This document shows positions 1,099 through 28,855 of a DNA stretch of 39,084 nucleotides, piece by piece. Origin of the DNA: an uncultured Desulfobacteraceae bacterium (GTDB taxonomy: Bacteria; Desulfobacterota; DSM-4660; Desulfatiglandales; HGW-15); assembly GCA_964497115.1 (NCBI GenBank), contig CAZCCX010000001.1:1-39084 (forward strand), given 5' to 3'. Each line of letters opens with the position of its first letter. Positions within the stretch are counted from its first letter, which is position 1. The notes below the pieces were generated by a model. The model worked only from the letters and a program-made list of their open reading frames with translations. It had not been told where the DNA came from and made no database searches. Both the position numbers and the translations under genes were made by a program.

Positions 1099-1102
1099 AG
1101 CA

Positions 1103-11777: not shown

Positions 11778-11930
11778 GAAAATGCACAGCGAGCGCATCC
11801 CCTGCAGGTTTGTTGGAGCGTAGCGGAAATCCCGCTCATCGGGGCTGCGGGGTTAGCGAGCGAATTACAGTAAAAAACTTCCTTACGTTTGGGAGATTCC
11901 CTGCAGCTTGCTGCAGGGATCTTCAATACC
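11778..11930 (+). repeat. Intergenic repeat family A, mosaic copy (inverted relative to 32101-32303)
   Basis: Blocks GAAAATGCACAGCGAGCGCAT, CCCTGCAGGTTTGTTGGAGCGTAGCGGAAATCCCGCTC, GGGGTTAGCGAGCGAATTACAGTAAAAAACTTCCTTACGTTTGGGAGATT and CTGCAGGGATCTTCAATACC all recur, nearly identical, in the reverse complement of 32101-32303. It also contains a perfect hairpin CCCTGCAG-cttg-CTGCAGGG. Confidence 0.7.
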
Positions 11931-12177: not shown

Positions 12178-13272
12178 ATGAGTAGATTTTTTAGATCTCC
12201 GTGGCTTGAAGTGAACGTGATGTTGTTCGTGCTCATCATCTCGTACATTGCGCTTGGCTTGATCACGGGAAACGCGGAAACAGAGCCCGGCGCCATGTCC
12301 GGCGGCGCCATCTGGGGATGGCTCTTTGGGTTCTTTCTTCTCAGTTTCGCCATAGCCTTGGTTGCCGTCATAGGGGGAATCGGGGGTGGTGTATTGTTTA
12401 CTCCCTTCATGCTGGCCTTTACACCGGTGGACAGCCTCATTGTCAGGGCAACAGGCCTGATTGTGGCCATGTTCAGCGGTCTGGTGTCTACGGGACCTTT
12501 TATGAAAGGGGGCTTGGCCAACCTGAGAATCTGCATTTTCTGTGCGGCCGCCTACGGTGTGGGGGCCTTTGCAGGCGCTCAGGGGGCCATCTATGTGGCC
12601 CAACACCTGGGGGAGACCGGTGAAGGCCTTGTGCGTCTTGCCTTGGGGGTCATTCTCGCCTCCCTTGCCGTTTATTTCCTGGCGGGGGGCAAAAAGATTG
12701 AGTGGCCCGAGGTCAAGAAAGTCGATAGGTTCACAAAGTGGTTGAAGCTTTCACAACCCTACTACGAAGTCTCCCTCAACAAAGTCATTGATTACCCGCT
12801 GACCAGGGCCGCTTGGGTGGTCTGCGCCATTGTCGGCGTGGGTCTGCTTTCCGGCTTCTTCGGCCTGGGGGCCGGCTGGGCCATCGTGCCCGCACAGAAC
12901 ATGATCATGGCCGTTCCCCTCAAGGTGGCTGCCGCAAACAGCGGGGTTCTCCTTGGAATGGGCGACTGTATCGGTGTGTGGCCCTATCTGCTCATGGGGG
13001 CGATCATCCCTGTCTTTGCGGCGCCCTGGCTGGTGGGGCAGGTCCTGGGCGGGTTGCTCGGCGCCCTGATTCTCATTCGAGTCAAGGCCGGTTTTGTCAG
13101 ATTCCTGTTGATCGGGTTTATGTTCTTTGCATGCTTCGGGCTGCTGACAAAAGGCCTCGGCATGCTGGGTGTCCTCGGGGACGTACCGGTTTGGCTCAAC
13201 GGCGCGGTGTTCCTGATCATCTTTGCCTCCGTGACACGCTCGATCATCAAATTCACGAGATCCACAGACTAA
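12178..13272 (+). CDS. TSUP (TauE/SafE, DUF81) family anion permease, copy 1
   Basis: Polytopic membrane protein built from two 4-TM halves, each with the TSUP motif (IGGIGGGVLFTPFM and GFFGLGAGWAIVPAQNMIMAVPLKVAAANS). About 40 hydrophilic residues are inserted between the halves. Confidence 0.85.
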   Translation: MSRFFRSPWLEVNVMLFVLIISYIALGLITGNAETEPGAMSGGAIWGWLFGFFLLSFAIALVAVIGGIGGGVLFTPFMLAFTPVDSLIVRATGLIVAMFSGLVSTGPFMKGGLANLRICIFCAAAYGVGAFAGAQGAIYVAQHLGETGEGLVRLALGVILASLAVYFLAGGKKIEWPEVKKVDRFTKWLKLSQPYYEVSLNKVIDYPLTRAAWVVCAIVGVGLLSGFFGLGAGWAIVPAQNMIMAVPLKVAAANSGVLLGMGDCIGVWPYLLMGAIIPVFAAPWLVGQVLGGLLGALILIRVKAGFVRFLLIGFMFFACFGLLTKGLGMLGVLGDVPVWLNGAVFLIIFASVTRSIIKFTRSTD

Positions 13273-13288
13273 GTTGGAGGGAAAAGAC

Positions 13289-13717
13289 ATGAACATAGAA
13301 GAGACCCCGAAAATGCCGCGTGCACAGACCATTTACGGTTCCATCGTCTACTGGGTTACCATCCTCTCCTGCCTCATCTGCATGGTCGGTCCGGTTATAT
13401 CCGTGGCATCACCGGACAACAATGTGCTTAACCCTTACAAGCTCTTTAGTGCCATTTTCGAAGGCAAAGACGCCCAGACCGTGTGGCAGGAGGTGGGAGG
13501 CGAATTCCCGGGAGGGCACTTTTACCTCAAGAATTTCACCTATGGTGACGGGTTCACCCAGTTGGGTTTGGCCTTGGGCTGCAGCGTCGCTCTGTGGGCC
13601 CTGATTGCTGTGGCGTTTGCCTATGCCTCTGACAGGATTTACCTTTACTTTTTCCTCTCCCTGTGGGTGGCCTTTCTTGTGGCCTTGTCCATGATCGGCA
13701 TTGTCGGGATGCACTAG
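13289..13717 (+). CDS. Small integral membrane protein partnered with TSUP copy 1 (possibly DUF1634-like; unverified)
   Basis: ORF 13274-13717. The ATG at 13289 follows GGAGGG with a 7-nt spacer, 16 nt after the TSUP stop. It has three predicted hydrophobic helices. It is a paralog of 16978-17352, sharing an N-terminal M..E..PK..MP..Q..Y pattern and a GD-containing loop before the last helices. Confidence 0.6.
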   Translation: MNIEETPKMPRAQTIYGSIVYWVTILSCLICMVGPVISVASPDNNVLNPYKLFSAIFEGKDAQTVWQEVGGEFPGGHFYLKNFTYGDGFTQLGLALGCSVALWALIAVAFAYASDRIYLYFFLSLWVAFLVALSMIGIVGMH

Positions 13718-13751: not shown

Positions 13752-14249
13752 TTATTTTTCATCGTCATCTAAATGTTTCAGCGCCTTGAGAATACCCATG
13801 GGGCTCGATCCCATGGCGAGCATCTCGATTTCCTCTTTCCGTTTCTTGTCATGCTCGAATTTCTTCCTGATTCTGGCTTCATAGGCGTCCTTGAGAACGC
13901 CCAGGAGCTTGTCGAAATTGTAAGGCTTTTCAAGGTAGCCGAATGCCCCCAGCTTCGTGGCTTCCACCGCGGAATCGATTGAGGCAAAACCTGTCAAAAT
14001 AATCACTTCCAAGAACTTATGCTTCTTCTTCAGGATCTGGAGGAGTTCCATACCATCCATGCCGGGCATTTTAAGATCCAGGATGGCCACGTCGAACGCG
14101 CCTTTCTTGGCGGCCTTGACGGCCTGCTTGCCCTCAGTGGCGGTGGTCACATCAAAATCCTTCAGCCCGAGCCGCTCTGCAACGGTCGCAAGAAATTTCT
14201 CATCGTCGTCAACGATGAGAAGCCCTATCTGTTTTTCTTTATCAGTCAT
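13752..14249 (-). CDS. Single-domain response regulator (REC plus about 45-aa charged tail)
   Basis: ORF 13752-14267. The ATG at 14249 has a GGAGG 7 nt upstream. REC motifs: LLIVDDDEKF, DVAILDLKMPGMDG, VIILTG, YLEKP. Confidence 0.85.
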   Translation of the reverse strand: MTDKEKQIGLLIVDDDEKFLATVAERLGLKDFDVTTATEGKQAVKAAKKGAFDVAILDLKMPGMDGMELLQILKKKHKFLEVIILTGFASIDSAVEATKLGAFGYLEKPYNFDKLLGVLKDAYEARIRKKFEHDKKRKEEIEMLAMGSSPMGILKALKHLDDDEK

Positions 14250-14441
14250 GGTATAGCCTCCTTTCATAAACGAATATAGTTATGTGGCACGGATTGATTT
14301 ATGCCTCCATTCTGGCTGTATGCCCCCATCCATTTCGGCCATGATCCTCCTTGCTGTATCGAGTCTATTTCCTCCTGTCCATTTCCGGTGACGGAGCCTC
14401 CTTCAGGAATCCCTTCAACAGCCGTGCTTTGGTTTGAGCCG

Positions 14442-15938
14442 CTAAGGCTGCATCTCCTTGAGCTTGCGCCAGAGCGAACCCCTATTGATTCCCAATATTC
14501 TTGCGGCCTCACTCTTGTTGCCTTTCGTGGCCTGCATCACCTCTAAGATGTATTGCTCATTAAGTTGGGCCAGCGTAAAAAAGTCTTTCCTCTTCAGGCC
14601 CGTAGATTTCTTCACCTCCTGAAAGCTCTGAGGCAGATGTTCCTTTTCCAGTTCGTCTCCTTCACACACGATGACGGCGCGCTCAATGGCGTTCTCGAGT
14701 TCTCGTATATTGCCGGGAAAGGGATAGGCGAGGAACTGGGCAAGAATTTCATCAGAAATCCCATTGATCTCTTTCCCGAATTCTTTTCGATATTGATCCA
14801 GGAAATAGCTGCACAAAAGGGGGATGTCTTCTTTGCGCTCACGAAGCGGCGGGAGGTCTATGACAAAGGTGTTTAGCCTGGAATAGAGGTCCTCAAAAAG
14901 GTCTCCATCATCGGGCGCCTTTTTAAGTATCCGCTCTGTTGCCGCAAGGACCCGCACCTCCACCGGGATCTTCTCCGTTCCGCCCTTTCTGATAATGGTC
15001 TCTTCCTCCAGCACACGCAATAGCCCGGCCTGTATTGAGACGGGCGTGTCACCGACTTCATCCAGGAGTATGGTTCCTCCCGATGCCGCTTCAAAGACCC
15101 CCTGCTTGGGGTGGCATGGGCCGGTCGTCCCCTTTTCTTGTCCAAACAATTCCTTTCGAAGCAATTCCTCGTTAAAAGACCCGCAGTTGATCGTTGTAAA
15201 CTGATTTTCTTTTCGTGGACTGAGCAGGTGAATGGTTCTGGCGACCCGTTCTTTGCCCGTACCGGTCTCACCCTGAATGAGCACCGGGCAATCCAGGGAG
15301 GCGACCTTTTGTATATTCTTTTTGACCTCCAGGATGGAGGCGGTTTCACCGATAAACCTGTGTAGAGGAGAATCAAAAGAATGGCCGGATGGAGCCGAAT
15401 CGGCAGAAGAGGGACGTCTTGGAACGCTCTGCCGCGAGGTATACCTTTCGAGTACTTCAGGGTTGAGGACCCTTTGGCCGGAGCCAAATTTGCCCCCCCC
15501 TTCCTGAGCCCCCGTGTTATTTTCCCCAACAGGGGGGCTGATAATGATCATGCCGGTCTTTGAACCGAATTGCTTGAGGAAATCCCAGAAGGCCCTCATC
15601 TCGTCTTTTTCAAAATAGGCCGAATCCAGGGCCTCGGCGGCCTCTTTGACCTTTTTGTTTCCATATCCGGTTAGGAGCACGGTTTTCAGAGCGGGATGTA
15701 TCTCTTTGAGCTTGGCAATCGTGGTTAACCCGTCCATGCCGGGCATCTTCTGGTCCACGACGGCGGCCTGAATCTGCGTCTTCCGGGCGATATCAAGGGC
15801 CTCTTCGCCGCTTGCGGCAGGCAACGGCTCAAACCCCCTCAGACGGATTCGTTCCGAGATGGAGTCCAGAAACTTCTTTTCATCGTCCACCAGAAGAACG
15901 GCTATATTTTTTGTATCCACGATGGTCAACTCCGACAC
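14442..15938 (-). CDS. NtrC-family REC-AAA+-Fis regulator lacking the GAFTGA motif
   Basis: GTG start with AAAGGA upstream. REC domain (VLLVDDEKKF..VVDQKMPGMDG). Walker A GETGTGKE, Walker B GGTILLDEVGD, FPGNIRELEN, and the Fis-type HTH GNKSEAARILGINRGSLWRKLKE. The GAFTGA position reads EKGTTGPCHPKQG (nt 15114-15131). Confidence 0.85.
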   Translation of the reverse strand: MSELTIVDTKNIAVLLVDDEKKFLDSISERIRLRGFEPLPAASGEEALDIARKTQIQAAVVDQKMPGMDGLTTIAKLKEIHPALKTVLLTGYGNKKVKEAAEALDSAYFEKDEMRAFWDFLKQFGSKTGMIIISPPVGENNTGAQEGGGKFGSGQRVLNPEVLERYTSRQSVPRRPSSADSAPSGHSFDSPLHRFIGETASILEVKKNIQKVASLDCPVLIQGETGTGKERVARTIHLLSPRKENQFTTINCGSFNEELLRKELFGQEKGTTGPCHPKQGVFEAASGGTILLDEVGDTPVSIQAGLLRVLEEETIIRKGGTEKIPVEVRVLAATERILKKAPDDGDLFEDLYSRLNTFVIDLPPLRERKEDIPLLCSYFLDQYRKEFGKEINGISDEILAQFLAYPFPGNIRELENAIERAVIVCEGDELEKEHLPQSFQEVKKSTGLKRKDFFTLAQLNEQYILEVMQATKGNKSEAARILGINRGSLWRKLKEMQP

Positions 15939-16006
15939 AGGCGATCCTTTTCTCTGTTTATGTTCTCAATCTTCGAACCACAAACCAGGCCCTCAGCCTA
16001 CAGACC

Positions 16007-16039
16007 AAAAAAGCGCCCTTGACTGCGGAGCGCCTTTTT
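16007..16039 (-). terminator. Intrinsic-terminator-like hairpin between the REC-REC gene and the activator gene
   Basis: On the minus strand, AAAAAGGCGC-13 nt loop-GCGCTTTTTT forms a 10-bp stem with one G-U pair, followed by a T-run. It lies 32 nt after the REC-REC stop. Confidence 0.45.
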
Positions 16040-16070
16040 CAAGAAGGAGGTGGAGTGAAAGAGAGCATGC

Positions 16071-16874
16071 TTAATGGTTCTTTTTCTTTTTCCCCATTCG
16101 GGCGGCATCTTCCAGGTCCCCTCCGCTGGCCATACCCGCAGCGGCCATGCTGTCTTCGAGGTTTTTCTGAAGCTTCTTCATGAAACTCCAAAAACCCCCC
16201 ATCTGGTCTTTTTCAAAATAATCCGAATTCAAGGCCTCGGCGGCCTCCTTGACCTTCTCATCGCCGAATCCGGTCAGAAGGACGGATTTTATGCGAGGGT
16301 GCATTTCCTTGAGCTTGGAGATGGTAGTCAAGCCGTCCATGCCGGGCATCTTTTGGTCCACGACCGCCGCGTGGATCTTGGTCTTTCGGGCGATCTCGAT
16401 GGCCTCTTCGCCGCTGGTGGCCGGAAACGGCTCAAACCCTTTCAGACGGATTCGTTCCGAGATGGAGTCCAGAAACTTCTTTTCATCGTCCACCAAGAGG
16501 ACATGAAGTCCTTTCTTTCCCATGCCCGTGAGGAAACTCCAGAACCGCCCCATCTCGTCTTTTTCGAAATAGGCCGTATCCAGGGCCTCGGCGGCCTCTT
16601 TGACCTTCTCATCGCCGAATCCGGTCAGAAGGACGGCCTTGATGTGAGGGTGAATTTCCTTGAGCTTGGAGATGGTGGTCAAGCCGTCCATGTCGGGCAT
16701 CTTCAGGTCCACGACCGCCGCGTGGATCTTGGTCTTTCGAGCGATCTCGATGGCCTCTTCGCCGCTGGTGGCCGGAAACGGCTCAAACCCTTTCAGACGG
16801 ATTCGTTCCGAGATGGAGTCCAGAAACTTCTTTTCATCGTCCACCAATAGTACGTTGAATCCGTTTTCTGCCAT
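16071..16874 (-). CDS. Tandem double-receiver protein (REC-REC, no output domain)
   Basis: ORF 16071-16907. The likely ATG is at 16874 (MAENGFNVLLVDDEKKF). Two REC domains lie 117 aa apart and are nearly identical. The C-terminus is a short Gly/Lys-rich tail. Confidence 0.85.
   Translation of the reverse strand: MAENGFNVLLVDDEKKFLDSISERIRLKGFEPFPATSGEEAIEIARKTKIHAAVVDLKMPDMDGLTTISKLKEIHPHIKAVLLTGFGDEKVKEAAEALDTAYFEKDEMGRFWSFLTGMGKKGLHVLLVDDEKKFLDSISERIRLKGFEPFPATSGEEAIEIARKTKIHAAVVDQKMPGMDGLTTISKLKEMHPRIKSVLLTGFGDEKVKEAAEALNSDYFEKDQMGGFWSFMKKLQKNLEDSMAAAGMASGGDLEDAARMGKKKKNH
16182..16853 (-). repeat. 351-nt tandem duplication inside the REC-REC gene
   Basis: For example, GGCTCAAACCCTTTCAGACGGATTCGTTCCGAGATGGAGTCCAGAAACTTCTTTTCATCGTCCACCAA occurs at about 16431-16498 and again at about 16782-16849. 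The period of 351 nt equals 117 codons. Confidence 0.8.
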
Positions 16875-16977
16875 GGCATTGATCCCTTTTTTTAACCTTT
16901 TCTTCAAGAAATAGGCGGATCGTCTAATGACCGCCGCTGCCCAGGATGCCGGAGGCGGCCAAGGACAGGACCGCGAC

Positions 16978-17352
16978 CTAGAGTATGGCTATCACAAAAT
17001 AGGCCCAGTCTCTTCTTTTTCTATAACCCGCGATCAGAAGTAAATAGCAGATTATTGTCAATACAGCAAGAAGGACCACCCCGAGGAAGTTGATAAAGTC
17101 CCCTCTGCTCAGGAGGCCAAGCCACCCCCATCCGTGGGGTGAATGGGTGATCTTCAGAAACTCATCGACCCCCTTGTCCCAGTTCTGGGTGATTAAGGCG
17201 ACATCCACGTGTGGCGGCAGGATGCCTCCAATATAGATCAGGTACGTGATGATCATCAACACGATACCCGTCCACGCCCCGATAAATAGAACGTTGGCAT
17301 AGGCGATTTGCTCGGGCATGGGCTTCAGGTTCTTAGGTATTTCATCATGCAT
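16978..17352 (-). CDS. Small integral membrane protein partnered with TSUP copy 2 (paralog of 13289-13717)
   Basis: ORF 16978-17391. The ATG at 17352 follows AAGGAG with a 7-nt spacer, 16 nt after the TSUP stop. This is the same spacing as in cassette 1. It has three hydrophobic helices. Confidence 0.6.
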   Translation of the reverse strand: MHDEIPKNLKPMPEQIAYANVLFIGAWTGIVLMIITYLIYIGGILPPHVDVALITQNWDKGVDEFLKITHSPHGWGWLGLLSRGDFINFLGVVLLAVLTIICYLLLIAGYRKRRDWAYFVIAIL

Positions 17353-17368
17353 CACTGAACTCCTTTCT

Positions 17369-18367
17369 TCAGCCGAGAATTCCGAGGCCAAGCCCCTTGT
17401 CTATGGCCTTGAGCCCGGCGAAAAACAAGACCACAATGACCATATAGCGAATGAATTTGGGCTTGGCGATGCTCAGAAGCCTTACCCCGACAAATGATCC
17501 AAACATCAATCCCAGGATGGAGGGGATGGCAATCAAAGGGATCACACAGCCCTTGTTCATGTATATCCACGCCGCGGATGTATCGGTAATGGAAAGGAGA
17601 AATTTGCTCGTGGCCACGGATACCTTTAAGGGCACGCCCATGACAAGATTGAGCACCGGAAGATTGGCCCATCCCGCTCCCAGGCCGAACATGCCGGCCA
17701 GCATACCGACCAAGATGAACATGGCAAGCCCAAGGGGGGTCCGATGGGTCTTCCAACTGACCTCTTCACCGGTCCCCTCATCAAGATAGGCGCCGTTAAT
17801 GCCCAGGGCGAGACCGAGCGCATCCTGTTTCGTCACAATCGGTTTTTCCGTATTCTTCGAAAACAGCAGGAGAATCGCGATGCCCAAGATGGTGGTGCCC
17901 AGGCAGACCTGGACAATGTCCGGGTTCAGCCTGGAAAGATAGAGTCCGAGCATGGCGCCGACGATGGAACACGCCGAGGCGATCAATGCCACCGGGAGGG
18001 CCAGCCGCAGGCTCGCAAGGTTTCGTCTCAGAAGACCGGGCCCGGCCGCCAGTGCGCCGGCCAGGGCCACCATCAGGCCTGCGCCGCGGACAAAATCGAT
18101 GTGGAACGGGAAAAAACCGCTCACCAGTGGGACATAGAGGACCCCTCCGCCGACACCCGCCAGGACGGCGATGATGCCGAGCGCGAAGCAGAATACAAAT
18201 AATATCAGAGGCCAAAACCACCATGGGTGTGTTGCCCCATCCGTCCCCACATTTTCGGCCGCTGATGCCGTCAGGGGATGGGTCAGTATCATGACCAGCG
18301 TCAAATTGACCAAAAAAGGGAATTTTTTCCAATACTTCAAAAGCATGGCCTCAAGACCCCTTCGCAT
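17369..18367 (-). CDS. TSUP (TauE/SafE, DUF81) family anion permease, copy 2
   Basis: Motifs LAGVGGGVLYVPL and GMFGLGAGWANLPVLNLVMGVPLKVSVATS. It has the same 4+4 TM layout and the same inter-half insertion as copy 1. An N-terminal signal-like segment is present. Confidence 0.85.
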   Translation of the reverse strand: MRRGLEAMLLKYWKKFPFLVNLTLVMILTHPLTASAAENVGTDGATHPWWFWPLILFVFCFALGIIAVLAGVGGGVLYVPLVSGFFPFHIDFVRGAGLMVALAGALAAGPGLLRRNLASLRLALPVALIASACSIVGAMLGLYLSRLNPDIVQVCLGTTILGIAILLLFSKNTEKPIVTKQDALGLALGINGAYLDEGTGEEVSWKTHRTPLGLAMFILVGMLAGMFGLGAGWANLPVLNLVMGVPLKVSVATSKFLLSITDTSAAWIYMNKGCVIPLIAIPSILGLMFGSFVGVRLLSIAKPKFIRYMVIVVLFFAGLKAIDKGLGLGILG

Positions 18368-18431
18368 TCTCTCTTTCCAAAGATAGTCGTTTGTGCTCTA
18401 ATATGCGCCTCAGCGATAAGAATGACTGTTT

Positions 18432-18457
18432 AATAATGAAACATATGTTTATTTATT
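18432..18457. promoter_or_regulatory. Palindromic candidate operator in the AT-rich divergent promoter region
   Basis: Perfect 12-nt palindrome AAACATATGTTT (18439-18450) with imperfect AT-rich flanks. It lies between the divergent starts at 18367 (-) and 18498 (+). Confidence 0.3.
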
Positions 18458-18497
18458 AAATAATAATCTTGATGTCAATCCTTTTTTATGATGCAAT

Positions 18498-18878
18498 ATG
18501 ATTCATATGAAGATCCTTGTTGTTGACGACGAAAAGAAGATTGCCGACGCTTTGGCTCAAAGGCTGGTGCTGAGGGGTTTTGATGCCACACCGGTCTATG
18601 ACGGAAGGTCCGCTCTTTCCCGGTTGAGAAGGGATGATTTCGATAGTATGGTTTTAGATCTCCGTCTGCCGGATATCGATGGGATTGAGGTTCTCAGAAA
18701 GATCATGGAGACCTCACCGGACATGAGGGTGGTCATCCTGTCCGGCCATGCCAATGAGCAGGATTTTATGATTTGCTTTGATCTCGGCGCGATTGCCTGT
18801 TTTCATAAGCCCGCAAAGATCTCCAAACTTGAAGAGGCCCTAACCCAACGGCCTGAGAAAAGAGATGAATTCCATTAG
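18498..18878 (+). CDS. Single-domain response regulator
   Basis: [49 protein letters not shown]. The stop overlaps the kinase start by 14 nt. Confidence 0.85.
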   Translation: MIHMKILVVDDEKKIADALAQRLVLRGFDATPVYDGRSALSRLRRDDFDSMVLDLRLPDIDGIEVLRKIMETSPDMRVVILSGHANEQDFMICFDLGAIACFHKPAKISKLEEALTQRPEKRDEFH

Positions 18879-20625
18879 TAGACTGACAACTCAGTTTGCA
18901 CCGAAGTTCTGGAATGCCGGGACATCCATGGCTCAAGGTCAGACCCTGTTCAATTACAGGAGATTCTACCTCGTTTCTTTTTCGCTTCGAGCCTTGGTCT
19001 CCATCGTCCCCATGGCGATCCTGCTCATATTTACTTATATGCTGGAGGATACGGCGATCAAGAATGAAAACCATCTTCGAACAGTCCGTTTGACATCCAA
19101 CACGAGGCGGACCATCACGTATTTCTTGCAGGAACGGTTGGACGCGCTGAAGTTCATTATTCAGCAAAAGAGAATCGAAACGCTAAAAGATCCAAATGAG
19201 TTGCCACAGGTTCTGTACAATCTCAAGATGGGGTTCGGCGGCTTTGTAGACCTGGGGCTGATCGATGGTTCCGGTTTGCAGATAAATTATTCCGGACCTT
19301 TTTTACTCACAGGAAAAGACTACAGGAATCAGGAATGGTTCAAAAAGTGTGCTGAGGACGGCTTGTATGTCAGTGATGTATTTATGGGTTACCGGAATCT
19401 CCCTCACATGATCGTCGCAATAAGATGGCCCATGGAGAATGGCGGATTTCATATCCTCCGTGCAACACTGGATATCCAAAAACTCATTCAAATCCTGTCT
19501 TCACTGGAACTCACTGAAGGGAGTGAGGCCTTTCTTTGCAGCCGTGACGGTTTGCTTCAGACCCCCTCCAAGTATTATGGGGAGATGCTCGAGAGAATCG
19601 ATTTACCTATGCCCGAATATTCAACGCATTCTCAGGTCATTGAGACCGTAGATCGGGCAGGCGATCCTATTTTGATCGGGTATGCCTACATAGAAAACTC
19701 TCCCTATATCCTCATGTTGGTCAAACGAAGCGTAGAGATCATGAAGGGTTGGGTTTCTATGCGCAAGGAAATCAGCTGGTTTTTTGGGGTGAGTGTCGTG
19801 GTTACCCTGGTTGTCGTCTTGGGTATATCCACATTAATGGTGAACAAGATCTATGATGCCGATCAAACAAGACTGAAGGCTATCGAACGCCTTGAAACGT
19901 CCAGCAGGCTGATCTCTGTTGGTCGATTGGCGGCCGGTGTCGCCCACGAGATCAATAACCCGTTGGCCGTCATCGGAGAGAATGCGGGGTTGATTAAGGA
20001 TCTTTTCTCCTTGAGAAAAGAATACAAGCAAGATCAACACGTTATGGAACTCATCGACGCCGTGCTGGAGTCGGTGGAGCGGTCCGGTGAGATTACCAAA
20101 GAGCTTTTGGGGTTTGCCAGACACTTTGAGCCGAGAATTACGCCGATCGAATTGAATAGGGTCATCTCAGAGGTCCTGTCTTTCCATAGAAAGGAGGCCT
20201 TATACCGGAATATAGGCATCAATGTGGATATCCCGGAAGACATCCCCGTGATTCATTCAGACCATGGAAGGCTGCAACAGATCCTCCTCAATCTCATCAA
20301 CAACGCCTTCCAGGCCATGAAGAGCGGGGGATGCCTTGACATTTCAGTGAAAAGAGAGGGGATGGAGAGCGTCTCCATAAGCATAAGTGACACCGGCCCC
20401 GGCATATCACCAGAGGACCAAAAAAGGATTTTCGAGCCCTTTTTTACTACCAAAGGATCGGAAGGCGGGGTAGGCCTCGGGCTGTCCATTACGTTCGGGC
20501 TTGTGGGAAAACTCAAAGGTGATATTTCTGTGCAAAGCAAGCTTGGCGAAGGAACCGCTTTTGTGATCACCTTGCCGATAGCCATTAAAGGAGACACCAA
20601 GAATGAAGGTCCTGCTTGTCGATGA
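18865..20625 (+). CDS. Sensor histidine kinase with two TM helices and an extracytoplasmic Cache/PDC-like domain
   Basis: TM1 LVSFSLRALVSIVPMAILLIFTYML, then a loop of about 270 aa, then TM2 ISWFFGVSVVVTLVVVLGISTLMV. H-box AAGVAHEINNPLAVI, N-box LLNLINNAFQAM, G1 DTGPGI, F-box FEPFFTTK, G2 GVGLGLS. Confidence 0.85.
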   Translation: MNSISRLTTQFAPKFWNAGTSMAQGQTLFNYRRFYLVSFSLRALVSIVPMAILLIFTYMLEDTAIKNENHLRTVRLTSNTRRTITYFLQERLDALKFIIQQKRIETLKDPNELPQVLYNLKMGFGGFVDLGLIDGSGLQINYSGPFLLTGKDYRNQEWFKKCAEDGLYVSDVFMGYRNLPHMIVAIRWPMENGGFHILRATLDIQKLIQILSSLELTEGSEAFLCSRDGLLQTPSKYYGEMLERIDLPMPEYSTHSQVIETVDRAGDPILIGYAYIENSPYILMLVKRSVEIMKGWVSMRKEISWFFGVSVVVTLVVVLGISTLMVNKIYDADQTRLKAIERLETSSRLISVGRLAAGVAHEINNPLAVIGENAGLIKDLFSLRKEYKQDQHVMELIDAVLESVERSGEITKELLGFARHFEPRITPIELNRVISEVLSFHRKEALYRNIGINVDIPEDIPVIHSDHGRLQQILLNLINNAFQAMKSGGCLDISVKREGMESVSISISDTGPGISPEDQKRIFEPFFTTKGSEGGVGLGLSITFGLVGKLKGDISVQSKLGEGTAFVITLPIAIKGDTKNEGPACR

Positions 20626-20956
20626 CGAGGAAAAATTTGTTTCCCGGTTGGCGGAAAGGCTGGAACTCAGGGGTTTCGAGGCCGACTGGGCCACGACTTG
20701 TGATGAGGCACTGTCCAAGGCCGAGGCCAAACAATACGATATCGCCGTGTTGGATGTGAAAATGCCGCGTCTGAGCGGCATAGATCTGAAGAAGAAGCTT
20801 GAAAAATTTGTCCCGAGAACCAGGTTTGTCTTTGTCACAGGTCACGGTTCCCAAGAGGATTATCATATCGGAATGCGAGAGGGGGTCTGCTGTCTCATAA
20901 AGCCCTTTAAGATTGAGACCCTTGTGGAAAAGATAAGGGAAGCCATGAACGTATAG
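20603..20956 (+). CDS. Single-domain response regulator
   Basis: KVLLVDDEEKFVSRLAERLELRGFEA, AVLDVKMPRLSG, VFVTGH, LIKPF. The start overlaps the kinase 3' end by 23 nt. Confidence 0.85.
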   Translation: MKVLLVDDEEKFVSRLAERLELRGFEADWATTCDEALSKAEAKQYDIAVLDVKMPRLSGIDLKKKLEKFVPRTRFVFVTGHGSQEDYHIGMREGVCCLIKPFKIETLVEKIREAMNV

Positions 20957-20977
20957 ATTGAGACATTAGGAGTTCAT

Positions 20978-21685
20978 ATGGAAGAAGAGATCGGGAAAAT
21001 CTGTGCCGAGGGATTGTCGTTCTTCGGAATGACGAATAGACTCATCTCTCACGAGTTAAAGAACATTCTGGCCATCACATCTGAAACGTTGGGACTGATG
21101 AATGAATTGGTGGAGCTGTCGGAAACAGGTGTGGCGTTGGAGCCCGGCAAGCTTAGCGCGCTGAGTGAAAGCATCATGGAAGAGGTTGAAAGGGCAAACC
21201 GGATTATTCGAAACATGAACACCTTTGCCCACAGCGTTGACGACTTTATCAGGGAGGTCGACCTCGGGCAGACTATAGGCCTCACCATGGAGATTTGCCG
21301 ATTGGACTCAGCCCTGAGAAAGACCGAGTTGAATCTGGTCGAGAGTGAGGCATGTACGATATACACGAGCCCCCTTTTTCTGAAGAACCTTCTCTACCGA
21401 GTCATAAACTTCTCTTTGCGTCAACCCGGCCGAGGAAATGAGATTCGAATTTCATTTGGTGCAAATGATCACGGGACGAGGATTGCCTTTTCCGGCCTCG
21501 CCTCGCCTATCCCCGGCGAATTCCCAACGAGAAAAGAGACTTTGCTTGCCGATGCGTTATCCGCAGAGGTATCACGCGACGCTGATGCAGGGGAACTGCA
21601 CATTGACCTTCCCAAAAGGATAGGGGAGAGTCTTATTCTTGAAATCAAGCAGAAACATAATAAGATCGCAGAATTTATAGATTAG
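20978..21685 (+). CDS. Cytoplasmic histidine-kinase-like protein with H-box but degenerate ATP-binding domain (candidate phosphotransferase or phosphatase)
   Basis: H-box-like LISHELKNILAI, and an N-box-like LKNLLYRVINFSL. I can find no DxGxG (G1) box and no GxGLGL (G2) lid. The C-terminal strands (AEVSRDADAGELHIDLP) resemble the end of an HATPase fold. There is no TM segment or sensor domain. Confidence 0.6.
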   Translation: MEEEIGKICAEGLSFFGMTNRLISHELKNILAITSETLGLMNELVELSETGVALEPGKLSALSESIMEEVERANRIIRNMNTFAHSVDDFIREVDLGQTIGLTMEICRLDSALRKTELNLVESEACTIYTSPLFLKNLLYRVINFSLRQPGRGNEIRISFGANDHGTRIAFSGLASPIPGEFPTRKETLLADALSAEVSRDADAGELHIDLPKRIGESLILEIKQKHNKIAEFID

Positions 21686-21711
21686 AAGAACGGAACTATC
21701 GCCATAGGCGG

Positions 21712-22056
21712 ATGCTCCTGGTAGAAGATGACTTAAAGATCGCTTCATTTGTCTCAAAGGGCTTCAGAGAGGCCCGATTTGCCCTGGATCACGCCGTCGA
21801 TGGAGATGACGGACTCTCCCTTGCGCTTAATACGCCATATGACGCGGCGGTCATAGACATCATGTTGCCCGGGATGGACGGCCTCCGTCTTATTGAGGAA
21901 CTTCGGAAGAAGCATATCCACACTCCCATCATCGTTTTGAGTGCCAGGAGATCGGTGGACGACAGGATCAAGGGGCTCCAGATAGGGGGAGACGATTATC
22001 TGACCAAGCCTTTTTCATCAGGATTGCAGACCAAAAGAACAGGACCATTACCTTGA
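21712..22056 (+). pseudogene. Truncated OmpR-family response regulator (receiver only; effector domain deleted)
   Basis: LLVEDDLKIASFV, AVIDIMLPGMDG, IIVLSARRSVDDRIKGLQIGGDDYLTKPFS. It then runs into unrelated sequence and stops. No winged-helix segment was found in any frame downstream. Confidence 0.55.
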
Positions 22057-22417
22057 CACTCCCCCATCAATGGTTGGAGTCTGATTTGAAATGGCTTGAA
22101 GCTCCGATCTTCTATAGAGACTCGAAGTGGAGTTACCTCCCCATTAGGGATGACAGATATGAATTGGAAGTATGCTCTGCCTTCGTAAACCAATCCCATA
22201 TCCTGCAAGTAGGGAAAAGCAATGAATACCGGTAGAAGATCTGCCCAGGATATGGGAATGGTTGTTCAGGGGTGAGAAGGCCCGGAGCCGGAGGGGATTG
22301 GGGCTGGGGCTGAGCCTGGTCAAGGCCGTTGTTCAGGCCCATGATGGCCGCATCGAGGTCTCAAGCGAACCGGGAAAGGGGACCACATTCGGCTTGATCC
22401 TCCCCTCTACGAATTGA
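22029..22417 (+). pseudogene. C-terminal remnant of a histidine kinase (frameshifted, no start, no sensor or H-box)
   Basis: The frame at 22226-22417 reads IPVEDLPRIWEWLFRGEKARSRRGLGLGLSLVKAVVQAHDGRIEVSSEPGKGTTFGLILPSTN*, which covers the F/G2 boxes and the end of the HATPase fold. The preceding frame (to 22235) has an N-box-like ...SHILQV... segment. At least one frameshift and internal deletions are present. Confidence 0.6.
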
Positions 22418-22422
22418 TTTTC

Positions 22423-23787
22423 CTAGCCTTCCATCCCGTAGCGTTTCAGTTTCCTCCAGAGGGAGACTCGATCGATACCCATGATCTTGGCCGCCCTGGT
22501 TTTGTTTCCGCCGCTTTTTTCCAGGACCCATTTTATATAATGTTTCTCCTGTTCATCGAGTGTGGGGATGGCAGACGGTGTATGACGGTAGGTCTCGATG
22601 GAGAGATTGCGGATAGATTCCGGAAGGTCCGCCGCCCGAACGGTATCGCCGTTCTCCAGGGCCACGGCCCTTTCGATGACGTTCTCCAGTTCCCTGACGT
22701 TCCCGGGCCACCCGTATTGGGTCAGCAGTCCCATGGCCTCCGGGTCGATGTGGCGGATATCTTTGCCCATGGCTTGGCTTTTTTGGGCCAGAAAATGGTT
22801 GGCCAGCAGAGGAATATCGCCTGACCGTTCCGTCAGCGGGGGAAGGCGGATTGTAATCACATTGAGACGATAATAGAGATCCTGTCGGAAATCTTCCGAC
22901 TCCACATCCTCTTTGAGGTTGCGGTGCGTTGCGGAGACAAACCGCACGTCGACCGGGATGGGCGAAAGCCCGCCGACACGCAGCAATTCTTTTTCCTGGA
23001 TGACCCGCAGAAGTTTCACCTGCATGGTTAGGGGCATGTCCCCGACTTCGTCCAGAAAAACGGTGCCGCCGTCGGCAAATTGAAGTAGACCGGCCTTATC
23101 GATCGATGCGCCGGTAAAAGCCCCTTTTTCATGACCAAACAGTTCGTTGGCCATCAACTCTTCGGTAAAAGAACCGCAATTGAATGCCACGAATTTCTTC
23201 GCGGATCGGCCACTCAGATCATGGATCGCCTTGGCGACCAGTTCCTTTCCCGTCCCGCTTTCTCCCAGGAGGAGTATATTCGTGTCCGAAGGGGCGATCT
23301 GCTGAACCGTTTCAAGCACCCCGTTCATGGACTCGCTCCTTCCGACAATGTAAGGAACCCGACTCGCCTTTTCGAGAGAGGCCCGAAGTTCAAGGTTTTC
23401 CATCTGAAGCCTTCGTTTAATCAAGGCCTCCCTGGCGACCTTTCGGACCTCGTCTATTTTATAGGGTTTAGCGATATAGTGATAAGCCCCCTCCTTCATG
23501 GCCTCTACGGCGCTGTCCACCGTTGCATATCCGGTGATCATAATCACCTCGGTGTAAGGCAGCAGGCGCCTGCTCTCCTCCAAGACCTTCATTCCGTCGA
23601 CATTTTCCATCTTGAGGTCAGTGATGACGAGATCAAAGATCGTGGTATTCAAGCACTCCAAGGCCTGCTTACCGTTGTCTACCGAAACGACGTCATAGCC
23701 TTCTTTTTCGAGGATATGCTCCAGATTCCTACGGGCCATATCCTCATCTTCTACGATAAGTATTCTTTCCTTAATGCGCTCCGCCAT
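22423..23787 (-). CDS. Sigma54-dependent response regulator (NtrC family: REC-AAA+-Fis) with canonical GAFTGA
   Basis: ORF 22423-23991. The likely ATG at 23787 (MAERIKERILIVEDE) overlaps the kinase stop by 17 nt. Motifs: GESGTGKE, GHEKGAFTGA, GGTVFLDEVGD, WPGNVRELEN, and the HTH GNKTRAAKIMGIDRVSLWRKLKRYG. Confidence 0.9.
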   Translation of the reverse strand: MAERIKERILIVEDEDMARRNLEHILEKEGYDVVSVDNGKQALECLNTTIFDLVITDLKMENVDGMKVLEESRRLLPYTEVIMITGYATVDSAVEAMKEGAYHYIAKPYKIDEVRKVAREALIKRRLQMENLELRASLEKASRVPYIVGRSESMNGVLETVQQIAPSDTNILLLGESGTGKELVAKAIHDLSGRSAKKFVAFNCGSFTEELMANELFGHEKGAFTGASIDKAGLLQFADGGTVFLDEVGDMPLTMQVKLLRVIQEKELLRVGGLSPIPVDVRFVSATHRNLKEDVESEDFRQDLYYRLNVITIRLPPLTERSGDIPLLANHFLAQKSQAMGKDIRHIDPEAMGLLTQYGWPGNVRELENVIERAVALENGDTVRAADLPESIRNLSIETYRHTPSAIPTLDEQEKHYIKWVLEKSGGNKTRAAKIMGIDRVSLWRKLKRYGMEG

Positions 23788-25282
23788 CTTCTTCTGTGAA
23801 GGGCAAGAAAACTGAAAATATCGTTCCTTCTCCCAGTTCGCTCTCGACCTCCATTCGCCCTCCGTGCTGCTCCAGTATGCCGTGGCAGATGGAAAGACCC
23901 AGTCCGGTGCCCCCTTGTTCCAATAGACTGTGCGAAGATGCGCCTGTTCGGACACTGCCGGCGACATCTTTAGTGCTGAAAAAAGGATCAAAGATTCTCG
24001 GGATGTCTTCTTCCGGAATGCCTTTTCCGGTGTCCTCCACCTGGAGATAGAATAACGCTTCCTCCTCTATCTTGCCGGCCCTGATGGTCAATCTCCCCCC
24101 GTCATTTTCCATGGCCTGCAAGCCGTTCAAGATCAGGTTGAGCAGGACCTGCTGAATCCTGCGACCATCCATATTCCCCTGGATGTCCTCAGGCACATTC
24201 ACGCTCAGTTCCACGTCTGCCGGCAGGTCGCCTTTTATCAGTTTAATGGTATCGTCCACAAGACTCTTCAGGGGCACCCGTTTCAAGCTGAATGTCCTTT
24301 CCCGGGAAAACTCCAGAAGTGCCTTGACAATGTCCCTCGCCCTATCGACCTGTTTTTCCGTTTCAGTCAGGAGCTGTCTCTTGTAATCCAGATCGGCCTC
24401 CTCCAATTCTTCCAACAGGATTTGTACCGAGGTGGAGATATTGTTCAAGGGATTGTTCAGTTCGTGGGCCACACCGGAGGTCAAGGTTCCCAGAGATGCC
24501 AGCTTTTCCGAATGGATAAGGCGTTCACTTCGCCTGTTCAGTTCTTTAATCATGTTGTTTAAACTGGTCACCAGGGTTTCAAATTCGTCGCCGGTTCCGA
24601 TCTCGGGGATGCTTTCATAGTCTCCCGCGGCAATCTTGTGAATGGCATTTTCGATGGCCTTGAGGGGGCGGTTGACGTTGAAGATCAGAAATAGAACGGC
24701 CAGAACGGATAAAACGATCATCCCTGCCAAGGCCATGAAATGATAAAGACTCGACTCTTTCATCAGCCTTTTGACATATTGGTGCTCTTTGTTGACCATC
24801 TTTTCCACATCGGTCGTCACGATTCTTCCGAGCGATTCGGTCTCGTTATGTGCACTTGATAAATCTCCGGTTGGCGTTTCGGCCGCTTTCAAGGCGCCGT
24901 CGTCCCGATAAAAACCCAGCACGGCGATCAGAGAATCCTTGTACCGTTGAATTTCGCCTATTATCTGGTCCAGGTTTTTTGCAGCCGTGTATTTCCCGTA
25001 ATAATCAACAATGTAGTGCATCTTCTCTTCGGCCTGTAGGATATAGGAAAGCGCGGACTTCAGGCTATTGACATCTAAGGAGAGGAAGTAGTTTTTTTCA
25101 TATCTCCGGGCCTCGAGTATGGTGTTGAGGAGGACGTCTTTCTCCTCGATGATCTGAAGTTTGCGATTAAGGATATCGTGTTTGTAGTAATTCAAAAACC
25201 ATATGAGTCCACCCGCCAGGATAAAGGCGGCAAAGGCAATCATGACTTTTCTTCTAATACTGGTCTTCATGGCCGATTCCAA
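23771..25282 (-). CDS. Sensor histidine kinase (2 TM, helical periplasmic sensor, HAMP, HisKA, HATPase)
   Basis: TM1 VMIAFAAFILAGGLIWFL, a helical loop of about 150 aa (EARRYEKNYFL), then TM2 FMALAGMIVLSVLAVLFLIF. HAMP (NRPLKAIENAIHKIAAGDY), H-box GVAHELNNPLNNI, N-box LLNLILNGLQAM, G1 DTGKGI, G2 GTGLGLS. Confidence 0.85.
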   Translation of the reverse strand: MESAMKTSIRRKVMIAFAAFILAGGLIWFLNYYKHDILNRKLQIIEEKDVLLNTILEARRYEKNYFLSLDVNSLKSALSYILQAEEKMHYIVDYYGKYTAAKNLDQIIGEIQRYKDSLIAVLGFYRDDGALKAAETPTGDLSSAHNETESLGRIVTTDVEKMVNKEHQYVKRLMKESSLYHFMALAGMIVLSVLAVLFLIFNVNRPLKAIENAIHKIAAGDYESIPEIGTGDEFETLVTSLNNMIKELNRRSERLIHSEKLASLGTLTSGVAHELNNPLNNISTSVQILLEELEEADLDYKRQLLTETEKQVDRARDIVKALLEFSRERTFSLKRVPLKSLVDDTIKLIKGDLPADVELSVNVPEDIQGNMDGRRIQQVLLNLILNGLQAMENDGGRLTIRAGKIEEEALFYLQVEDTGKGIPEEDIPRIFDPFFSTKDVAGSVRTGASSHSLLEQGGTGLGLSICHGILEQHGGRMEVESELGEGTIFSVFLPFTEEDGGAH

Positions 25283-25360
25283 CGGTTCTTGCCGGTTCTG
25301 TCAGAGGGATTATTTTACGGGAAGTCAAAACATAATAGAAATACTTATACACAAAGGGGA

Positions 25361-26212
25361 TCAAGAATAATAGGGAGAATCCACATCGCAGATCACGTCT
25401 TTGACATCGGGGACTTCTCTGACGGCATCCATAATCTCCAGAACCAGACCCTCCCTGATCTGCTCTCGAACCCGCCGCTGCAAATCCTGCCCGGCAATGC
25501 CCGTCTTCCTCAATTTTTGCCCACGGACCTTGATATGGACGATACCTGCATTTGAGGTCACTTCAGCGTCACATATTCCCTCAAGAGCCGCCTTGACATG
25601 AGCGGCTAGCGCCAAATCATCAATTGCCTTTTGGGATTCAGGGGTGGTCTGAAATTGCTCTAATCCCGAAGTATAACATATCATCTCTACGGCATCTGTT
25701 ACGGATAGTTTGTGAATATGGATGACCAAGTCATATAGGCTGGTATCCCATGTATCCATCCCATAGAGAGACTTGCTCCATTTTCTTCTCTCTTCATCGT
25801 CCTTTAGCAGGATATGCAAGGCCTCTTTTCTCGATATGCCTTCACGATCCATCTCGAGCCTCACACGGTCCTCTAACTCGGCAATAATCCTTACTTTCAG
25901 GACATGGGATATCCCCTTTACAAAGAAATGACCGGCCAAACCATGGTAGACGATATTGTCTTTTCTAAAATGATCCAGTATTTCCGCTTGAACGAATGAT
26001 ATGTATTTTTCTTTTTTCTGCGAAAGATGACTGAAGAATGACGGCGCATCATGAATGGCTCTTATGAGTTTTACCTCCGGGACATTAAACTCATCTGAGG
26101 CTTCAAAAAGAACACGCCGGGCAATGCATTCATACCCAAGCCGCTCTGCAACTTTCTCGGCAATCTCTTTGCCTTTGCTGTAAGAACCGCGACTAATCGT
26201 AATGATGGCCAT
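25361..26212 (-). CDS. Cytidylate-kinase-like family protein with C-terminal BON-like segment
   Basis: The N-terminus IITISRGSYSKGKEIAEKVAERLGYECI matches the Cytidylate_kin2-type degenerate P-loop. The C-terminal part, about 80 aa, is BON-like. AAGGAG RBS. The assignment is from motif memory. Confidence 0.6.
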   Translation of the reverse strand: MAIITISRGSYSKGKEIAEKVAERLGYECIARRVLFEASDEFNVPEVKLIRAIHDAPSFFSHLSQKKEKYISFVQAEILDHFRKDNIVYHGLAGHFFVKGISHVLKVRIIAELEDRVRLEMDREGISRKEALHILLKDDEERRKWSKSLYGMDTWDTSLYDLVIHIHKLSVTDAVEMICYTSGLEQFQTTPESQKAIDDLALAAHVKAALEGICDAEVTSNAGIVHIKVRGQKLRKTGIAGQDLQRRVREQIREGLVLEIMDAVREVPDVKDVICDVDSPYYS

Positions 26213-26240
26213 GATGAATCTCCTTTTTCTTGTCTCGGAA

Positions 26241-28055: not shown

Positions 28056-28157
28056 TCGCCACACTCCTTTTCCATTCTCAAGGTCCGGATGGGTCTCATC
28101 CTTTAGAACACCGCTGCATTAAGAAAGCCCGCTTCTATTCTCTATTCTATTACACCC

Positions 28158-28214
28158 AAAAAAGCAGAAAATCCACTCTCCTGGCGACAAGGAGAGTCGG
28201 AGTATCTGCTTTTT
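28158..28214. terminator. Nested hairpin, likely a bidirectional intrinsic terminator
   Basis: Inner stem CTCTCCT (28176-28182) pairs with AGGAGAG (28190-28196). Outer stem AAAAAAGCAGA (28158-28168) pairs with TCTGCTTTTT (28205-28214). T-runs are present on both strands. It lies 34 nt after the stop of 28248-28805. Confidence 0.5.
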
Positions 28215-28247
28215 CAGATGGTTTGTCTGACGGAAATCAAGGGATAT

Positions 28248-28805: not shown

Positions 28806-28855
28806 CTTTGAAGTCCTCCTTCATGCGATTTCATGTGGGACATGGATATGCGGTC

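Follow-up and report, generated by a model that had tools for sequence, protein, structure and literature searches.

A conserved gene cluster with a lidless kinase-like protein in Desulfobacterales is most likely a multi-component phosphorelay module

Introduction

In the genome of an uncultured Desulfobacteraceae bacterium, a gene cluster rich in receiver (REC) domains encodes one complete histidine kinase (HK) together with a short HK-like protein without an ATP lid, which raises the question of whether the latter passes phosphoryl groups between the receivers. The DNA analysed, referred to as the window, is a stretch of 39,084 nt (GenBank assembly GCA_964497115.1, contig CAZCCX010000001.1, positions 1 to 39,084 of the forward strand), in which the cluster occupies positions 13752-21685. 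To our knowledge, degenerate histidine kinases acting as phosphotransferases or phosphatases have been studied in few cases, namely Spo0B, ChpT, PhyT and RedE. As phosphotransferases, degenerate kinases serve in the Spo0B, ChpT and PhyT systems (PMC5898713; PMC3433190). A preliminary description of the DNA, made from its letters and open reading frames (ORFs), had proposed a His-Asp-His-Asp relay for this locus, with a dedicated phosphatase as the alternative. On the analysis reported here, 13752-21685 is most likely a conserved multi-component phosphorelay module of Desulfobacterales, each of whose phosphotransfer steps is a prediction from sequence.

Genes of the cluster

Gene and domain calls, made from the ORF list and a Pfam scan, reproduced all ORFs and domains of the preliminary description, and the overlaps of 14 and 23 nt that it had given for the first two plus-strand junctions follow from the coordinates. 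Nine genes are arranged in two divergent runs, with TauE, the 137-aa membrane protein, REC-REC, the enhancer-binding protein (EBP)-like regulator and REC171 following each other on the minus strand, and REC126, the Cache kinase, REC117 and the HK-like protein on the plus strand:

13752-14267, minus strand: REC(C), a 171-aa receiver (REC171) with a conserved C-terminal tail (Pfam)
14442-15938, minus strand: EBP-like regulator of the type REC-AAA+-HTH_8, 498 aa, with REC, Sigma54_activat (E 2e-51), AAA_lid_14 and HTH_8
16071-16907, minus strand: ORF of the REC-REC protein, two receivers and a conserved tail, LQKNLEDSMAAAGM
16978-17391, minus strand: 137-aa membrane protein with hydrophobic segments, always following the TauE gene in conserved synteny
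17369-18367, minus strand: TauE/TSUP-family permease, 332 aa (Pfam TauE, E 2.7e-35), first gene of the minus-strand operon
18498-18878, plus strand: ORF of REC(A), a single-domain receiver (REC126; Pfam REC)
18865-20625, plus strand: Cache sensor kinase, 586 aa, with a transmembrane segment, dCache_1, a second transmembrane segment, HisKA and HATPase_c
20603-20956, plus strand: REC(B), a single-domain receiver of 117 aa (REC117; Pfam REC), immediately 5' of the HK-like gene
20978-21685, plus strand: HK-like protein, 235 aa, Pfam HisKA only

Translation of REC(A) likely starts at the ATG at 18507 (MKILVVDDE; 123 aa), a start shared with 15 relatives, and that of the REC-REC protein at the ATG at 16874 on the minus strand, giving a product of 267 aa that matches those of relatives. 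The TauE permease is 76-91% identical to its relatives, and the 137-aa membrane protein had no match in Pfam or NCBIfam. In the Cache kinase, hydrophobic segments 34-65 and 301-330 were located on either side of the Cache domain and the nearest NCBIfam models were AtoS and ZraS; judged by its domains, it is the one complete sensor kinase of the cluster, of the NtrB/ZraS/AtoS type.

Sequence and predicted fold of the HK-like protein

The H-box of the HK-like protein, LISHELKNILAI, was found at residues 22-33, with His25 lying within the motif S-H-E-L-K-N. The Pfam HisKA match of the single sequence scored 20.7 bits, under the cut-off of 26.9 bits, and HATPase_c was absent. Close relatives numbered 159, with about 227 aa each. 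In an alignment of 28 members of the family, HisKA was matched in all 28, and HATPase_c, HPTransfase (ChpT) and SPOB_a/SPOB_ab (Spo0B) gave no match at E<=10 in any of them, so that HisKA alone emerged from the profile comparison that the preliminary description had proposed. The alignment further revealed the first 90 residues to be highly conserved and the remainder not, the Asn of the N-box being among the residues that were not conserved.

An AF2 model built on this alignment (pLDDT 85, pTM 0.81) predicted helices at residues 2-49 and 56-87 followed by an alpha/beta domain, that is, a DHp hairpin and a CA-like domain, the ATP-site motifs of which are missing by sequence. The best Foldseek matches of the model were the DHp-CA cores of true kinases (EnvZ chimera, CusS, SrrB and HK853; E 1e-9 to 1e-7), with DivL and RetS ranking lower. 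Comparison of the HK-like profile with the neighbouring kinase by hhalign gave a probability of 97%, but the aligned region begins at the H-box and extends no further than G1, at which 'DTG' of the kinase was aligned with 'SG(L/I)' of the HK-like proteins (SGL in the window protein). Between the G1 strand and the last strand lie 45 aa in the HK-like protein vs 68 aa in the kinase, a difference of 23 aa; G1, the F box, the lid (about 23 residues) and G2 are absent from the CA-like domain of the HK-like protein. A search of PDB sequences with the single HK-like sequence retrieved ZraS weakly (E 0.27), and with the family profile again ZraS, a true kinase, at 7e-6.

Compared with a canonical HisKA autokinase, the DHp domain with the H-box His is thus present and HATPase_c with its N, G1, F and G2 boxes and lid is absent. 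The preliminary description had recognised the retained H-box and the lack of G1 and G2, and had named intact N, G1 and G2 boxes as evidence against its relay; no such boxes were found. Since the ATP lid and all ATP-binding residues have been lost, the HK-like protein is predicted to be incapable of autophosphorylation. As read from sequence and model, it is a lidless pseudo-kinase, composed of a DHp hairpin and a CA-like domain and derived from an NtrB/ZraS-type kinase. The predicted fold has the architecture of DHp-type phosphotransferases, a His-bearing hairpin followed by a Bergerat-like alpha/beta domain without ATP motifs. The likeness in architecture to Spo0B and ChpT, drawn in the preliminary description, was therefore borne out by the model, Foldseek, hhalign and the shortened lid segment. 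Membership in the ChpT or Spo0B sequence families, which had not been claimed, was ruled out by the lack of a Pfam match and by absence from the best 50 Foldseek matches.

The conserved N-terminal 24 residues of the HK-like protein stand free and are not joined to a sensor by a coiled coil. Its last 16 or so codons are lineage-specific, and the odd C-terminal tail of the window protein is due to a rearrangement breakpoint at 21636.

An abundant family of HK-like proteins

A profile search of the full library returned 2381 representatives at E<=1e-3 and 281 at E<=1e-30, and the best 150 matches were nearly all 207-250 aa in length and aligned end to end. A second search including distant members gave at least 3017 clusters at 90% identity, with a typical length of 221 aa. 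Hosts were named as Desulfobacteraceae, Desulfobacterales, Desulfobacula, Desulfatiglandaceae and Desulfobacterota, together with one 'Pseudomonadota' metagenome-assembled genome (MAG), and the proteins were labelled 'hypothetical', 'sensor histidine kinase', 'HAMP domain-containing histidine kinase' or 'bacteriophytochrome' in the databases.

Motif conservation was counted over 144 family representatives with 25-66% identity to the query. His25 and Asn29 (H+4) were invariant (144/144), position 26 was Glu or Asp in 140, and a second motif, MN-x-F-A-H-S-V-D, was nearly invariant at the end of helix 2. In the CA-like half nothing was conserved, as evident from DxGxG being present in 5 and GxGxG in 7 of the representatives. 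This pattern, with the hairpin motifs conserved while the CA-like half is not, implies selection on the His hairpin and not on an ATP site. Among degenerate kinases serving as phosphotransferase or phosphatase, this family appears to be an independent case that is abundant and uncharacterised.

Gene order and fusions in relatives

Close relatives of the cluster were present in three metagenomic contigs and 17 species-representative genomes, all of them Desulfobacterales-type MAGs, in which gene order was mapped by tblastn. The full nine-gene order was found in loci L001, L012-L017 and L020, shorter contigs agreed with it as far as they extend, and it was retained down to 37% identity; the comparison of gene order suggested in the preliminary description thus revealed a conserved arrangement. 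The EBP-like gene is absent from L002/L010, L003 and L004. In L003, its 5' and 3' ends flank a clean deletion of 1.3 kb, and these remnants imply that the EBP-like gene is ancestral.

In distant members (L022, L025, L026 and the contigs P0150 and P0164), a simpler core was found in the order REC(A) - Cache kinase - REC(B) - HK-like - REC(C). It is usually preceded by TetR - SulP/STAS, with REC(A) usually fused to Cytidylate_kin2, and is sometimes followed by CBS - DASS - further two-component genes - Usp - Cytidylate_kin2. The order Cache kinase, REC, HK-like was invariant across the examined modules. REC-REC is absent from the modules of the wider family, where His25 stays invariant. The Cache kinase of the window is 46.7% identical over its full length to that of the SulP-linked module L022, and pairwise comparison with this module confirmed positional orthology of REC126 with the receiver of the CytK2::REC protein (its best match, 43.6%), of REC117 with REC122 and of REC171 with REC146 (41%).

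REC(C) directly follows the HK-like gene in L020, L022, L025 and L026. Fusions of a REC(B)-like receiver to the N-terminal side of the HK-like protein were found in P0164 and P0312, and a fusion of the HK-like protein to a REC(C)-like receiver in P0249. In L013-L018, the EBP-like regulator and the REC171 ortholog form a single ORF, REC-AAA+-HTH-REC, of 646-702 aa. Taken together, the fusions assign the HK-like protein a position between REC(B) and REC(C) and link the latter receiver with the regulator. By gene content, the cluster is not an isolated 'island' but one form of a module that is widespread in Desulfobacterota and linked to anion transporters (SulP, DASS or TauE).

Cytidylate_kin2 genes recur beside the modules, namely in the window (25361-26212) and in L001, L002, L004, L009, L012, L022, L025 and L026. 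The Cytidylate_kin2::REC(A) proteins of SulP-type modules are 405-414 aa long, and the fusion suggests a receiver-controlled output domain. No canonical P-loop was seen by eye in the window copy, and nothing was found in the literature joining cytidylate kinase-like proteins, response regulators and sulfate.

Receiver domains

All seven receivers of the window retain the acidic pair, the phospho-Asp, the Thr/Ser and the Lys. The count of seven given in the preliminary description holds for the window, and the working module is composed of six REC domains in five proteins, since the receiver at 21712 belongs to a relic outside the module (see below).

In REC(B), the beta4 motif F-x-F-V-T-G-H-G was conserved in 21 of 22 orthologs, with one fusion reading ...TGY. 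This motif resembles FATGUY, which was described for intermediary receivers serving ChpT/PhyT-type partners (PMC9981736), and makes REC(B) a candidate intermediate receiver. REC(A) has no aromatic switch residue, owing to a Cys at position K-3 that was present in 17 of 21 orthologs; REC(C) and the receivers of the REC-REC and EBP-like proteins keep a Tyr at the switch position.

The two receivers of the window REC-REC protein are 90% identical to each other, and each is 80-81% identical to the receiver of the EBP-like regulator, in agreement with the triplicated REC module noted earlier. In relatives, the two receivers are 65-90% identical within each genome, and they group by genome and not by position in the lineage of the window, L003 and L004 and in those of L002, L012 and L020, which suggests repeated gene conversion or shared constraint. 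The three near-identical receivers probably share a phosphodonor, as far as can be judged from their likeness. The D+2 and T+2 residues of the receivers were tabulated as a guide to phosphoryl lifetime and did not discriminate between them.

The EBP-like regulator and the divergent intergenic region

In the EBP-like regulator, a loop reading 'GTTGPC' replaces GAFTGA; the loop is also degenerate in most orthologs, and the Asp-Glu pair of Walker B has been lost in the orthologs L012-L014. The sigma54 -24/-12 consensus was not found in any intergenic region of 13752-21685. Loss of the GAFTGA loop together with the lack of a sigma54 promoter in the cluster speaks against reading this protein as a sigma54 activator. 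The domains REC, AAA+ and HTH of the earlier assignment were retained. From its sequence, the orthologous group looks like a sigma54-independent or pseudo-ATPase regulator, and the protein is the probable DNA-binding output of the TauE-type version of the module. A conserved GTCAAT...TTGCA block was considered as a sigma54 site and rejected for its wrong spacing and lack of GG.

The divergent intergenic region comprises 139 bp (18368-18506) and contains two conserved elements:

18427-18443, strand-neutral: palindrome TGTTTAATAATGAAACA, consensus TGTTTAC-AAA-TGAAACA, conserved in a 15-locus alignment and followed by TGTTTATTTATT
18469-18499, plus strand: promoter-like block TTGATGTCAAT...TTTTTT...TGATGCAATAT, conserved across loci and ending 7 nt before the REC(A) ATG

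The window contains no second copy of the palindrome, for which 0.06 chance matches would be expected. Its left half-site has decayed in the loci L002, L003 and L004, which are devoid of the EBP-like gene. The same decay was seen in L005, which is nearly identical to L004 at the palindrome and whose contig is too short for absence of the gene to be judged. The palindrome, including TGTTTAAT and TGAAACA, might be an operator at which the EBP-like regulator acts without sigma54. The block at 18469-18499 may act as a promoter. No Shine-Dalgarno sequence was apparent before the REC(A) ATG in any of the loci, and with the block ending 7 nt before this ATG, the REC(A) transcript may be leaderless.

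Proposed phosphotransfer and alternative explanations

The observed architecture, loss of the ATP site, conservation, synteny and fusions would be accommodated by a relay of the Spo0B/ChpT/PhyT type, running from the Cache kinase to REC(B) (and REC(A)), from there to His25 and on to REC(C), REC-REC and the receiver of the EBP-like regulator; we assign to this reading a probability of about 0.5. The steps and their direction, like the operator and the ligand, are predicted as follows. The membrane Cache kinase (18865) would autophosphorylate and phosphorylate the receivers encoded by the adjacent genes, REC(A) (18507) and REC(B) (20603). The HK-like protein (20978) would be a dimeric DHp-type phosphotransfer protein, the His25 of which would receive the phosphoryl group from phosphorylated REC(B) and pass it, reversibly, to REC(C) and to the three near-identical receivers of REC-REC and the EBP-like regulator. 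REC-REC would probably be a buffer, a sink or a competitor for the receiver of the regulator. The EBP-like regulator would probably act at the palindrome of the divergent region without sigma54, controlling the TauE permease operon and the relay genes. As the H-E-x-x-N motif is invariant, the HK-like protein can probably also drain phosphoryl groups from receivers.

The relay is favoured by the fusions (REC::HK-like, HK-like::REC and EBP::REC171) and by the FATGUY-like motif of REC117. The earlier proposal of a His-Asp-His-Asp relay through a single-domain receiver therefore stands in its outline, fitting the synteny, the fusions and the REC117 motif, with the receiver at 21712 removed from it.

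Several observations weigh against this relay. The alpha1 helices are alike in all receivers and do not distinguish the pairing of partners, and pairing of receivers with the DHp domain by covariation was precluded by DHp helix 1 being almost invariant. The best 50 Foldseek matches of the HK-like model are real kinases, with ChpT and Spo0B not among them. The operator assignment is based on three or four lineages without the EBP-like gene. SulP-type modules (L022, L025 and L026) have no DNA-binding response regulator, which limits transcriptional output to the TauE-type version. The HisKA signature H-E-x-x-N marks phosphatase activity, and its invariance would equally be expected of a dedicated phosphatase. 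Finally, the RedCDEF system has the same list of parts, and in it the HK-like RedE is mainly a phosphatase, the His of which is phosphorylated for regulation (PMC2755868).

The last point leads to the strongest competitor, which we nevertheless hold to be unlikely: the HK-like protein would, like RedE, be a regulated phosphatase that dephosphorylates a single-domain receiver as the true output, with His25 phosphorylated by another receiver, e.g., REC-REC, as a switch. RedE is a protein of 242 aa with His24 that does not autophosphorylate, and the phosphoryl group flows from Asp to its His (PMC2755868); the HK-like protein presumably shares the lack of autophosphorylation. Judged by published descriptions, RedCDEF of Myxococcus xanthus corresponds to the cluster in its membrane HK, its short HK-like protein (about 240 aa, with His24 or His25), its dual-receiver protein and its stand-alone receiver (PMC2755868). 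The H-E-x-x-N signature, invariant in 144/144 members, suits a phosphatase, and a single-domain receiver as output is plausible given that SulP-type core modules are without a DNA-binding response regulator. The likeness ends at the domains: RedE has a conserved HATPase_c and a weak HisKA (PMC2755868), whereas the HK-like family has HisKA and no HATPase_c, and the RedD receivers belong to the different classes A4 and A3 (PMC2755868), whereas those of REC-REC are near-identical in the window and 65-90% identical in relatives. Moreover, the dual receiver is not part of the wider core of the HK-like family, and His25 is invariant although REC-REC is missing there; the receiver fusions on both sides of the HK-like protein look like the wiring of a relay. 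The dedicated phosphatase that had been named as the alternative is thus compatible with the invariant signature, and the relay is still favoured.

A distinctly less probable explanation is that the HK-like protein modulates the Cache kinase by forming a DHp heterodimer with it, as RetS does with GacS, and either blocks or redirects the kinase or is trans-phosphorylated by it. The two proteins are always co-encoded and similar in DHp helix 1 around the His (12/38 identical, with H-E-x-x-N in both), and structures of the RetS kinase region, including the RetS-GacS complex, were found at Foldseek ranks 41-45. Against this, overall identity between the two is only about 23%, a pure blocker would not need the invariant His and Asn, the free-standing N-terminal 24 residues carry no coiled-coil link to a sensor, and the HK-like protein is fused to receivers and never to a kinase.

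That the HK-like gene is a functionless, decaying kinase gene in a chance pile-up of two-component genes can be dismissed as extremely improbable: real relics exist in the window (the response regulator/HK stub at 21712-22417 and the split permease at 32346-34135) and the C-terminal tail was changed by the rearrangement at 21636, but the size of the family (at least 3017 clusters at 90% identity, 281 representatives at E<=1e-30), its constant length and invariant motifs and the gene order kept down to 37% identity already contradict decay.

Comparison with known systems

The proposed relay resembles the Spo0 system (KinA to Spo0F to Spo0B to Spo0A) in comprising a kinase, a single receiver, a dimeric DHp phosphotransferase with a domain that does not bind ATP and a receiver on a transcription factor, all as separate proteins. 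It differs in that the HK-like protein has no SPOB_a/SPOB_ab match and keeps a clear HisKA H-box, in that there are several terminal receivers and two receivers beside the kinase, and in its linkage to transporter genes instead of sporulation.

With CckA-ChpT-CtrA/CpdR of Caulobacter and Pak-SdrG-PhyT-PhyR of Sphingomonas, it would share a degenerate kinase as phosphotransferase and a branched output to several receivers. PhyT takes phosphate from a single-domain receiver and hands it on to the output regulator (PMC5898713), and a FATGUY-type motif in the intermediate receiver, for which REC(B) is the candidate in the cluster, is also common to these systems and the cluster (PMC9981736). In contrast to ChpT and PhyT, which occur in Alphaproteobacteria, the HK-like family belongs to Desulfobacterota and is apparently of independent origin, with a HisKA/NtrB-like DHp domain, no HPTransfase match and ChpT outside the best 50 Foldseek matches. 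PhyT is membrane-anchored, whereas the HK-like family is soluble, with about 221 aa.

Clusters of the types TetR-SulP and CBS-DASS-Usp, with Cache kinases and several receivers, were reported from Desulfobacteraceae and proposed to serve in sulfate sensing (Sci Adv 2025, PMC11887813). The wider HK-like family sits in exactly such clusters (L022, L025 and L026), and the window also carries a DASS/CitMHS-CytK2-HK-EBP operon. The window module differs in having a TauE permease instead of SulP and, in addition, the REC-REC and EBP-like genes. In the accessible text of that paper (PMC11887813), the systems are treated as simple kinase/regulator pairs and a lidless kinase-like protein is not mentioned; a 2018 survey of sulfate transporters makes no mention of regulators. 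With the same core adjoining SulP and DASS transporter genes in the wider family, the foremost candidate for the signal would be sulfate or a related oxyanion.

Proteins of this kind are already known; what is new is a large family, unannotated or mis-annotated, with a very constant gene context. The SulP, DASS and TauE context in sulfate-reducing Desulfobacterota links the family to the question of sulfate sensing and the control of sulfate uptake in these organisms, and the set of five to nine proteins is open to direct phosphotransfer profiling. A broader proposal, speculative and on balance doubtful, would see in the proteins of about 221 aa an independently evolved, Desulfobacterota-wide group of DHp phosphotransferases. 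They would stand at the centre of a relay with five components (REC(A)/CytK2::REC, Cache kinase, REC(B), HK-like and REC(C)) that senses sulfate or a related oxyanion and controls SulP, DASS and TauE transporters, partly non-transcriptionally through receiver-only proteins and a cytidylate kinase-like output domain. If true, this would be the long-sought regulatory circuit of sulfate uptake in the dominant marine sulfate reducers.

Lineage-specific segment and further features of the window

Comparison of the window with L003 (about 87% DNA identity) revealed that homology stops at 21636, 50 nt before the stop codon of the HK-like gene, and resumes at 36203. Positions 21637-36202 thus form a lineage-specific segment of 14.5 kb between the HK-like gene and trkH that is absent from L003 and carries the following relic:

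21712-22417, plus strand: response regulator/HK relic, composed of a REC stub (21712-22056), about 170 bp without a match and a kinase CA tail (22226-22417) in another frame

The REC stub on the plus strand stops right after 'KPFS', where an OmpR-type linker would begin, and translation of 22226-22417 gives the final 63 residues of a kinase CA domain, matching HATPase_c positions 49-110 of 111 (E 6.4e-14). From the stub ending at the linker and the 3' stub of the kinase in another frame, we conclude that a pair of OmpR-type response regulator and HK has lost its middle. Between the stubs, 22057-22225 had no repeat in the window or the loci and no Pfam match. The relic is absent from all relatives; the truncated REC at 21712, once listed as the last gene of the plus-strand operon, is the 5' stub of a deleted gene pair and occurs in no relative's operon.

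Besides the relic, the segment carries a canonical sigma54 activator with a HAMP kinase, the Cytidylate_kin2 gene, a DASS/CitMHS transporter, two unknown genes, a REC-Lon protease, a split permease and trkA. The activator, the second of the window (22423-23991), has a canonical GAFTGA. The sole perfect sigma54 consensus of the window, TGGCACATCTATTGCT, lies at 29609-29624 on the minus strand, about 250 nt upstream of a minus-strand run encoding proteins of 168 aa and 185 aa, DASS/CitMHS(TrkA_C), Cytidylate_kin2, the HAMP kinase and the sigma54 activator, and is probably the target of this activator.

The Lon protease (29955-32036, plus strand; REC - AAA - Lon_C, 693-aa ORF) has a receiver in place of the usual N-terminal domain and, by this domain order, would be a phosphorylation-controlled protease. 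An amino-acid permease is split into two overlapping ORFs (32346-34135, plus strand; AA_permease_2 positions 1-255 and 275-405), which reflects either a frameshifted pseudogene or a sequencing error.

An intergenic repeat of about 55 bp was found in the window at 32212-32265 and, inverted, at 11844-11898, as well as in L003 (1433-1538), L005 (6345-6401) and L011 (7652-7697). With L003, the shared stretch reaches up to 105 bp, and in several genomes the repeat lies beside the cluster or at the edges of rearranged blocks. A GC-rich hairpin adjoins the repeat, which had no Rfam match, and neither had any other part of the window at gathering thresholds.

Just upstream of the cluster, at 12178-13717 on the plus strand, a second TauE-family permease (364 aa) is encoded together with a 147-aa membrane protein of its own. 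The two TauE permeases of the window are 34% identical, and their small membrane proteins are barely similar (23% over 52 aa). Near the start of the window lies an ordinary Tol-Pal cluster (232-4299, plus strand), with genes for a TonB_C-type protein, TolB, a Pal-like lipoprotein of the OmpA family and a CpoB/YbgF-like TPR protein.

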